64,000 bases of DNA from an uncultured Mycoplasmatota bacterium (GTDB taxonomy: Bacteria > Bacillota_I > Bacilli_A > RF39 > UBA660): NCBI GenBank assembly GCA_900544605.1, contig UQVP01000002.1:13709-77708 (forward strand), in the 5' to 3' direction. Numbering within the stretch: position 1 is the first letter of the stretch; every line of letters starts with the position of its first letter. The position numbers were made by a program, and so were the translations under genes. Positions 56,777 through 57,515 of this stretch are shown here, in pieces. Under the pieces are notes generated by a model. That model was given only the letters and a program-made list of their open reading frames with translations. It made no database searches and was not told where the DNA came from.

Positions 56777-56805
56777 TTGACTTTTAGCATAAAATATAGT
56801 ATATT
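56777..56805 (+). promoter_or_regulatory. Promoter of the type III antitoxin-toxin transcript
   Basis: TTGACT (56777-82), a 17-nt spacer, then TATATT (56800-05). Confidence 0.55.
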
Positions 56806-56837
56806 ATTATTGCATTTGAAGAAGTGCATCAATAAGA

Positions 56838-56950
56838 AAATGTTTCTCGCTCCCGGATGGTGCGAGTAATAAATTATTCCGGTCGACAATGTTTCTCGCT
56901 CTCGGGTGGTGCGAGTAATAAATTATCCCGAATGAAAATGTTTTGAAAAC
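56838..56950 (+). ncRNA. Type III antitoxin RNA array (2 full and 1 partial 49-nt repeats, ToxI/CptI-like)
   Basis: Repeat units start at 56838, 56887 and 56936. Each folds into stem CTCGC/GCGAG with a loop-to-3' pseudoknot. The pseudoknot is preserved by two compensatory substitution pairs between the units. Confidence 0.75.
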
Positions 56951-56977
56951 TTTATCTTAATTGATAGAGTTTTCTTT
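56944..56977 (+). terminator. Terminator between the antitoxin repeats and the toxin gene
   Basis: A 12-bp stem (56944-56955 with 56962-56973, one G-U pair) and loop TTAATT, followed by TTTT. Confidence 0.7.
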
Positions 56978-57014
56978 TACTTTATGATAAAATCATGTCA
57001 AAGGAGTTGATGTT

Positions 57015-57515
57015 ATGAAAATACAAACTGGATATCTATATCATATTAAAGATGAATTTTTTGATATAGTAAATGATGAAAATTTAATGACTAATCATGA
57101 GCGTGGCAAAAAACGACCAACTTATTTTACTATAAAAGATAAAGATATATTATGGTTTATTCCACTTAGTAGTAAAGTAGATAAATATAAAAAGGTAGTC
57201 AGTAATAAAATAAAAAAATATGGTGTTTGTAATTCTATTCTTATCAGAGATATTTTAGGTAATGAATCAGCAATATTAATTCAAAATGCATTTCCTACAT
57301 TAGAAAAATATATTGACCATGCTCATATTCTAAATAATGGAAAACCAGCTAAAGTTATTAGTTCAACTTGTGATGAAATTTTGGAAAATTTTAATCAAAT
57401 GTTAAAATTGAAAAAGAAAGGATTAAATTTTTTCTTTACTGACATTGATAAAATTAAAAAACAAATGTTAGATGAGTTAAACAAAGAAAACTATATAGTG
57501 AATGGTAATAATTAG
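57015..57515 (+). CDS. ToxN/AbiQ/CptN-like type III toxin endoribonuclease
   Basis: 166 aa with ribosome-binding site AAGGAG. The N-terminus is MKIQTGYLYHIKDEFFDIV...KKRPTYFTIKDKDILWFIPLSS, and an ILIQNAFP segment follows. It sits directly behind the repeat array and terminator. Confidence 0.7.
   Translation: MKIQTGYLYHIKDEFFDIVNDENLMTNHERGKKRPTYFTIKDKDILWFIPLSSKVDKYKKVVSNKIKKYGVCNSILIRDILGNESAILIQNAFPTLEKYIDHAHILNNGKPAKVISSTCDEILENFNQMLKLKKKGLNFFFTDIDKIKKQMLDELNKENYIVNGNN

Follow-up and report, generated by a model that had tools for sequence, protein, structure and literature searches.

What is the locus that occupies positions 56777 to 57515 (plus strand) of a 64,000-nucleotide (nt) stretch of contig UQVP01000002.1 from an uncultured Mycoplasmatota bacterium (here called the window, within which all coordinates are given)? 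It carries a short tandem repeat array followed by an open reading frame (ORF), and an initial annotation had read it as a functional type III (RNA-protein) toxin-antitoxin module that acts in phage abortive infection. We found that every element cited in that annotation (a promoter, the repeats, a terminator hairpin, a ribosome-binding site, and a 166-amino-acid ORF) is present and that its core reading holds at the level of sequence, since a CptN-family toxin and pseudoknot repeats are both found. Very probably, the locus is an intact chromosomal type III toxin-antitoxin module of the CptIN family. On the family of the toxin, the role of the module, and the route of toxin expression, our reading departs from the one first given.

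The toxin gene, cptN (57015 to 57515, plus strand), encodes a 166-amino-acid protein predicted to be a CptN-family endoribonuclease (RNase) on the basis of an NCBIfam model, Protein Data Bank entry 4RMO_A, and an AlphaFold model. It belongs to the CptN family and not to the ToxN/AbiQ group, and on this the three comparisons agree. First, the NCBIfam equivalog model NF047359 (type III toxin-antitoxin system CptIN family toxin) matched it end to end, over model positions 1 to 150 of 150 (expect value [E] = 6e-46; 156 bits, against a cutoff of 90). Second, its only relative by sequence in the Protein Data Bank was 4RMO_A, the CptN protein of Eubacterium rectale (E = 2.5e-19, residues 5 to 148), to which it is 36% identical. 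Third, 4RMO_A was also the best structural match to the AlphaFold2 model (template modeling [TM] scores, 0.74/0.79; root mean square deviation, 2.7 Å; E = 9.4e-10), and AbiQ, ToxN_Bt, MazF, and CcdB ranked far behind it. That model has a predicted local distance difference test (pLDDT) score of 67 and a predicted TM score of 0.67, and its match to 4RMO_A assigns it to the CptN/ToxN-like fold, for which a twisted antiparallel beta-sheet core with surrounding helices is typical. In Pfam-A at E ≤ 1, the sole match was one to ATG17_like that is attributable to chance, with none to a ToxN family, and a PADLOC search gave no match for the toxin protein. Thus, of the family models that had been suggested for this protein, Pfam ToxN_toxin failed to match and the CptIN model matched well above its cutoff, and the idea that the toxin N terminus is of the ToxN/AbiQ type has to be abandoned.

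Comparison with the E. rectale toxin (CptN_Er) suggested that the protein keeps the catalytic core but probably differs in specificity. S52-S53-K54 aligns with S51-S52-R53 of CptN_Er and is invariant, or nearly so, in the clade, the triad arginine having been assigned from sequence and not from structure. R34-P35 and His102 are likewise invariant in the clade, and a nearly invariant His104 stands at the position of CptN_Er Tyr104, a residue that stacks on the base adjacent to the scissile adenine (PMC4627078). The positions of Asp81 and Ser85, which together with Tyr104 specify the scissile A in CptN_Er, vary within the clade. The catalytic core looks intact as far as the alignment can tell, and recognition of the cut site probably differs from that of E. 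rectale CptN, which fits the toxin-RNA coevolution described for the CptIN family.

The RNA partner is encoded directly upstream. Tandem Repeats Finder delimited an array at 56836 to 56943 with a period of 49, 2.2 copies, and 86% matches. In the register that begins with AATGTTT, the array comprises CptI repeat unit 1 (56839 to 56887; 49 nt), unit 2 (56888 to 56936; 49 nt), and a truncated third repeat (56937 to 56944; AATGTTTT), all on the plus strand. The unit sequences quoted in the initial annotation were exact, but the starts it gave for them (56838, 56887, and 56936) have to be moved one base to the right, to 56839, 56888, and 56937. When the A of AATGTTT is numbered 1, the proposed stem S1 pairs positions 8 to 12 with 24 to 28 and stem S2 pairs 15 to 19 with 40 to 44; in unit 1, S1 is formed by 56846 to 56850 with 56862 to 56866 and S2 by 56853 to 56857 with 56878 to 56882, and an 11-nt A-rich loop, L2 (UAAUAAAUUAU), extends from 56867 to 56877. 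Units 1 and 2 differ internally only by C15>T with G44>A and by A19>G with T40>C, as first reported, and both of these paired changes are compensatory within S2. The array (56838 to 56935) also stands out as an island of 45% G+C in a window of 25% G+C, and a contrast of this kind might offer an easy way to spot genes for structured RNAs in this genome.

For comparison, we used the 80 nearest related loci (L001 to L080), and most of the conservation counts given here are based on approximately 75 of them. From related loci we aligned 79 distinct units, and the covariation in this alignment strongly supported the prediction that the repeat folds as an H-type pseudoknot with a 5-bp S1, a 5-bp S2, and an 11-nt A-rich loop with an AUAAA core, the stems being those first proposed. 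Standard pairs filled 95.4% of the cells, compared with 24 to 54% when the 3′ partners were slid by 1 to 3 columns. Two-sided changes (98 cells) were found at all five S2 pairs and at three of the five S1 pairs (8 of 10 overall), and none of 500 shuffles attained the observed covariation score. In L2, A31, A33, A34, and A38 were invariant and U32 was nearly so, and a UGG was invariant in the loop between the 5′ strand of S2 and the 3′ strand of S1. The related loci, approximately 75 in number, amount to a natural mutagenesis series in which both stems covary while the AUAAA loop core and the UGG loop stay fixed. These data lend independent support to a CptI fold that had come from one crystal structure and extend it to units of 49 to 51 nt. 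The predicted fold is the one that characterizes CptIN antitoxins, namely, a pseudoknot of the H type whose long, A-rich L2 makes an A-minor twist with a kink U, the A-minor contacts being a matter of prediction for the window units.

Other searches of the array region returned little. Minimum free energy folding of 56812 to 56980 recovered only S1, a leader hairpin, and the terminator, as this method cannot show pseudoknots. An Rfam scan of 56600 to 57100 at E ≤ 10 gave chance matches only, all well under the gathering scores, and none to a ToxI or CptI family. Nor was there a second array elsewhere in the window: exact matches of AATGTTTCTCGC were limited to the two expected, and the four matches with two mismatches were within chance. 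We also considered whether the two units carry different S2 sequences so that neighboring repeats cannot mispair in the precursor. This idea was rejected, as the 5′ strand of S2 in unit 2 can pair at 5 of 5 positions with the 3′ strand in unit 1 when G·U pairs are allowed, 43 of 62 loci permit a complete cross-pairing, and S2 is identical in both units in 21 of 62.

The length of the unit, 49 nt, had been taken to exceed that of the described families and hence to mark a possibly divergent subfamily. This was mistaken, because the published ranges include or nearly reach it: ToxI repeats span 31 to 62 nt and TenpI repeats 39 to 57 nt, and in a 2012 survey of 33 cptIN loci the CptI repeats measured 40 to 48 nt in 1.9 to 3.4 copies (PMC3401426). 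Among the 131 units that we delimited upstream of 80 genes, 91 were 49 nt long, whereas 25 had 51 nt, 14 had 50 nt, and 1 had 52 nt. Thus, the usual unit in this clade of gut Bacilli has 49 nt, a single base more than the upper limit found in an old and small sample. The array accordingly has the form known for CptIN loci, that is, some two to three direct repeats of roughly 40 to 50 nt directly upstream of the toxin gene and on the same strand.

The repeats and the toxin gene are embedded in a conserved arrangement of expression signals. The antitoxin promoter, P1 (56777 to 56805, plus strand), has a −35 element TTGACT at 56777 to 56782, a 17-nt spacer, and a −10 element TATATT at 56800 to 56805; it was as first described, with 10 of 12 consensus matches in a promoter consensus scan, and most related loci have TTGAC(T/A)-N17-TATATT equally far upstream of their first repeat. 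The primary transcript is predicted to open with a leader hairpin, GCAUUU-GAAG-AAGUGC (56812 to 56827, plus strand), seen in the minimum free energy fold. Its arms, TGCAY and RTGCA, are kept across related loci with changes such as T·G to C-G, and it possibly serves to stabilize the 5′ end of the antitoxin transcript. Five loci (L021, L035, L038, L040, and L060) have a different hairpin at this position.

Between the repeats and the toxin gene, as in CptIN loci generally, lies a predicted Rho-independent terminator (56945 to 56978, plus strand), consisting of a 12-bp hairpin at 56945 to 56974 followed by TTTT at 56975 to 56978. This hairpin and T-run, which the initial annotation had already singled out, proved to be the sole terminator-like site in 1.1 kb, where shuffled sequences predict 0.1. 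The hairpin folds at −14 kcal/mol and recurs at the equivalent place in nearly all 75 loci, with loops that vary and stem changes that are compensatory. A ribosome-binding site, AAGGAG (57001 to 57006, plus strand), lies 8 nt upstream of the cptN ATG, and related loci likewise keep a block rich in G at −11 to −13. That the combination of array, hairpin, and ORF goes beyond chance follows from its recurrence as a set in approximately 75 of the 80 related loci fetched. These loci come from different species, and the conservation of P1, the repeats, the terminator, and the ORF among them points to selection.

How would such a module work? By analogy with E. rectale CptIN, the toxin would cleave the precursor on the 3′ side of the conserved GA found ahead of each (A/C)AAUGUUU, and the products would be two 49-nt RNAs ending in 2′,3′-cyclic phosphates; CptN_Er itself cuts after A45, at UUGA^AAGUUU, and leaves a cyclic phosphate (PMC4627078). 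The motif GA^(A/C)AAUGUUU is present three times in the window, starting at 56836, 56885, and 56934, and from this we predict two processed 49-nt RNAs, 56838 to 56886 and 56887 to 56935, with the truncated third repeat supplying the 3′ processing site of unit 2. Following the E. rectale model further, each RNA would bridge two toxin monomers, and two RNAs and two proteins would close an inactive ring. Such a 2:2 heterotetrameric RNA-protein ring is known for CptIN_Er only (PMC4627078), and the presence of exactly two full units per transcript in the window is compatible with it but proves nothing. If transcription were to stop, whether because a phage shuts it off, because of stress, or because the locus is lost, the labile RNA would decay and the stable RNase would be freed to cut cellular or phage RNA at A-rich sites, resulting in growth arrest.

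Several points weigh against reading the locus as an intact CptIN module. Some of the active-site or specificity residues of CptN_Er are lost (Tyr104 replaced by His104, SSR by SSK, and Asp81 and Ser85 at variable positions), the AlphaFold2 model reaches only moderate confidence at a pLDDT of 67, and RNase activity, processing, toxicity, neutralization, and stoichiometry are all argued by analogy with a protein of 36% identity.

The family to which the locus belongs is large. In a collection clustered at 90%, 2,730 proteins matched the toxin at E ≤ 1e-5; among clusters at 50% identity, 997 matched at E ≤ 0.001 and 477 at E ≤ 1e-10; and a relative is encoded in 408 species-representative genomes. 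The window thus adds one member to a family of about 1,000 clusters that already has a crystal structure and an NCBI annotation model, and automatic annotation would name it. All of the 80 nearest loci are in uncultured gut metagenome-assembled genomes (MAGs), labeled "Bacilli," "Tenericutes," or Candidatus Onthousia, from humans, rabbits, ruminants, and chickens.

At the nucleotide level, similarity to the best of these loci starts at P1 and stops at the toxin stop codon. When we compared 55923 to 59149 of the window with seven loci (L003, L007, L009, L011, L022, L028, and L029), CptN showed 75 to 92% amino acid identity versus 40 to 62% for the ZIP transporter next to it and, in L007, 47 to 55% for AlkD and Xer; L007 keeps the synteny, its order of ZIP, CptIN, AlkD, and Xer being that of the window. 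The higher conservation of the module could reflect either unusually strong purifying selection or exchange between lineages. Nine of the MAGs among the top 80 matches carry two cptIN loci on different contigs (L005/L047, L021/L049, L027/L030, L023/L057, L042/L071, L038/L059, L060/L070, L026/L077, and L035/L072), and the paired loci usually differ in antitoxin class, having units of 49, 50, or 51 nt and other S1 and S2 sequences, which is consistent with coexisting, mutually insulated systems. Variant arrays were also seen: L022 has four units (upstream, −270 to −75), L003 (2540 to 2671) and L026 (2506 to 2675) have a second array upstream, and L025 and L029 have a segment made up of P1 plus repeat directly after the toxin gene (approximately 3499 to 3600).

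What such a module does for its host is a separate question. The initial annotation assigned it to abortive infection, an assumption that our analysis did not support: neither CptIN_Er nor CptIN_Rt aborted infection by the coliphages tested in E. coli, whereas CptIN_Er did stabilize plasmids (PMC3401426; PMC5086642), and abortive infection has never been shown for CptIN. The toxin, as noted, has no PADLOC match, and the genes that neighbor the module in the window are of housekeeping type (an M29 aminopeptidase, the ZIP transporter, a DNA-alkylation repair protein, a Xer-type recombinase, and RarA/MgsA), with no defense or phage genes adjoining it. A tblastn search of 50,697 phage records found no homologue. 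These observations, together with a module that is more conserved than its flanks and often occurs twice per genome, favor a role in self-preservation, by addiction or stabilization of a chromosomal region, or in stress-induced growth arrest instead of phage defense. On the other hand, the infection tests were run with coliphages in E. coli, a host remote from the native ones, and their authors considered defense possible (PMC3401426), and ToxIN, AbiQ, and TenpIN, which share the fold and the mechanism, do abort infection (PMC3401426; PMC5086642). We therefore give a nondefense role for the module a little less than an even chance, and a single locus such as this one cannot decide whether CptIN systems defend against phages.

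Finally, we asked how the toxin gene is transcribed. The arrangement first proposed, a leaky terminator and then the toxin, is right as to the terminator but doubtful as to read-through being the main route of toxin expression, because a conserved promoter-like element follows the terminator. This element, a candidate toxin promoter that we call P2 (56983 to 56993, plus strand; TATGATAAAAT), has a −10 sequence TAAAAT at 56988 to 56993 and matches TRTGnTAnAnT, a pattern that marks Gram-positive sigma-A promoters of the extended −10 type that carry a TRTG "−16" motif. In the window, 36 nt separate the T-run from the ATG, and it is loci with short spacers (T-run 34 to 40 nt from the ATG) that carry TRTGnTAnAnT, which lies exactly 6 nt past the T-run in approximately 50 loci. 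At least 7 of the 8 specified bases were matched in 58 of 75 loci, compared with approximately 15% of shuffles, and the information content ranged from 1.56 to 1.72 bits over the bases T, G, T, A, A, and T, compared with 0.15 to 0.51 bits over the n positions. Relatives with long spacers (84 to 172 nt) have in the same interval a full promoter, TTGAC(G/A) or TTGCAA followed by N17/18 and TAnAnT. The promoter scan itself proposed TTGATA-N16-TATGAT at 56961 to 56988, which we discarded as probably P2 in the wrong register, the conserved letters TG-n-TAnAnT lying three bases farther on.

These patterns suggest, with somewhat better than even confidence, that most toxin mRNA in this clade originates at a weak extended −10 promoter belonging to the toxin gene itself, P2. 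The broader proposition, that in the clade the toxin is transcribed from its own sigma-A promoter past the antitoxin terminator and that antitoxin RNA and toxin mRNA are separate units, seems slightly favored on the same comparative grounds. The ratio of antitoxin to toxin would then depend on how strong P1 is relative to P2, as well as on termination. P2 is the only feature of the locus that departs from the known CptIN model. If real, it would break the rule of a single promoter and a leaky terminator, which reviews give as universal for type III systems, and a balance between two promoters would allow independent regulation, with a bearing on how transcription shut-off triggers such systems.

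The alternative is a canonical single-promoter operon in which all toxin mRNA arises by terminator read-through, as in ToxIN and CptIN_Er, and in which TRTGnTAnAnT is kept for some other reason, for example, as an RNA element in the 5′ untranslated region. Several facts weigh against P2 and for this alternative. P2 has no recognizable −35 element, the nearest candidate, TAGAGT at 56965 to 56970, sitting in the 3′ arm of the terminator; its −10 ends 19 to 21 nt before the ATG in most loci, so that transcription would start right at the Shine-Dalgarno sequence and give an unusually short leader; AT-rich DNA yields many promoter-like matches (19 in the 1.1 kb scanned, versus 9.1 expected); and reviews describe type III loci as operons with one promoter (PMC5086642; PMC12373285). 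What tells against read-through as the sole source is that the conservation is position specific, high at TG, T−12, A−11, A−9, and T−7 and free at −13, −10, and −8, a pattern that follows the sigma-A extended −10 hierarchy and not that of a contiguous RNA motif. In the related loci we found no conserved RNA pairing involving the TRTGnTAnAnT block, and the long-spacer relatives place a full −35/−10 promoter where P2 lies. Nor did the P2 motif occur in the cptIN loci of E. rectale, Megamonas, and C. perfringens, the three more distant ones that we examined. There the T-run is only approximately 13 nt (E. rectale) or 20 nt (the Megamonas and C. perfringens plasmid loci) from the ATG, so that these loci, which would depend on read-through, have no room for a promoter. 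We consider the single-promoter operon rather doubtful for this clade.

Far weaker is the view that the repeats and the ORF are unrelated neighbors, the array being a decaying duplication, a coding segment, or an array of regulatory sites: it can draw on a mechanically called 41-amino-acid minus-strand ORF (56764 to 56889) that overlaps the array and on the lack of any Rfam family matching the array, but it is effectively refuted by covariation, the substitutions being compensatory for plus-strand RNA stems, and by the co-occurrence of array and ORF in the same order and at the same spacing in approximately 75 loci, a layout that also defines a family with a solved RNA-protein complex.

How does the module compare with systems already known? 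With ToxIN (Pectobacterium, Bacillus thuringiensis, and E. coli) and AbiQ/antiQ (Lactococcus) it shares the type III logic and the order of the locus. The toxin folds are distantly related (TM scores of 0.62, with E = 6.9e-3, for AbiQ [4GLK] and 0.61 for ToxN_Bt [4ATO]), with no match at the level of sequence (Pfam, E ≤ 1). ToxI units are of 34 to 36 nt and form triplex-rich pseudoknots in triangular 3:3 assemblies, unlike CptIN, and abortive infection activity has been demonstrated for ToxIN/AbiQ whereas none has been shown for CptIN.

Distant toxin homologues (33 to 38% identity) are encoded in cptIN-like loci on a Megamonas funiformis plasmid (NZ_CP048628) and on Clostridium perfringens plasmid pCP346-91 (NZ_CP075965). 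In all, we found three distant homologues that are plasmid borne; the 2012 survey had cptIN on chromosomes only (PMC3401426). In the two named loci, upstream repeats of 47 nt (2.1 copies) or of 47 and 50 nt, with the same layout of S1, S2, and A-rich loop, are followed by a terminator. They share the AUAAA(A) loop core with the window, although the repeat sequences are otherwise different, and their spacing of approximately 20 nt from T-run to ATG lacks the extended −10 motif. The Megamonas array lies at 1341 to 1441 of L201. In that of C. perfringens (L202, 1243 to 1443), 47- and 50-nt units alternate to form a 97-nt super-repeat, present in 2.1 copies that are 99% identical, which suggests two distinct antitoxin RNAs for one toxin.

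The closest known system is CptIN of E. rectale (4RMO; PMC4627078), which has a homologous toxin of the same fold at 36% identity, is likewise chromosomal, and has the same order of promoter, approximately two tandem repeats, intrinsic terminator, and toxin gene. The two differ in host, the window being from a 25% G+C uncultured lineage of gut Bacilli and CptIN_Er from a member of the Lachnospiraceae; in the toxin, with His at the position of Tyr104, SSK for SSR, and variation at the Asp81 and Ser85 positions; and in the spacing from T-run to ATG, which is 36 nt with a conserved extended −10 in the window and 13 nt in E. rectale. The E. rectale CptI unit, AAGUUUACCACUGACCGAUAUGUGGUAUAUAAAUGGUCGGGUUGA (reverse-complemented from a primer table; PMC4627078), is of 45 nt, compared with 49 nt in the window, and apart from the shared motifs the repeat sequences are unrelated, the four extra bases of the window unit falling in the 5′ tail, in the UGG loop between the 5′ strand of S2 and the 3′ strand of S1, and in L2. 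Both nevertheless begin with a 5′ tail and have S1 and S2 of 5 bp each, a very short L1, and a long A-rich L2, in the same order of elements, and in both a GA precedes the cut, predicted in the window and actual in CptIN_Er. A-U-A-A-A-U in L2 is common to the window units and CptI_Er, and the functionally essential A29-U30-A31-A33 of CptI_Er, with its kink at U30, has an exact counterpart in A31-U32-A33-A35 of the window unit.

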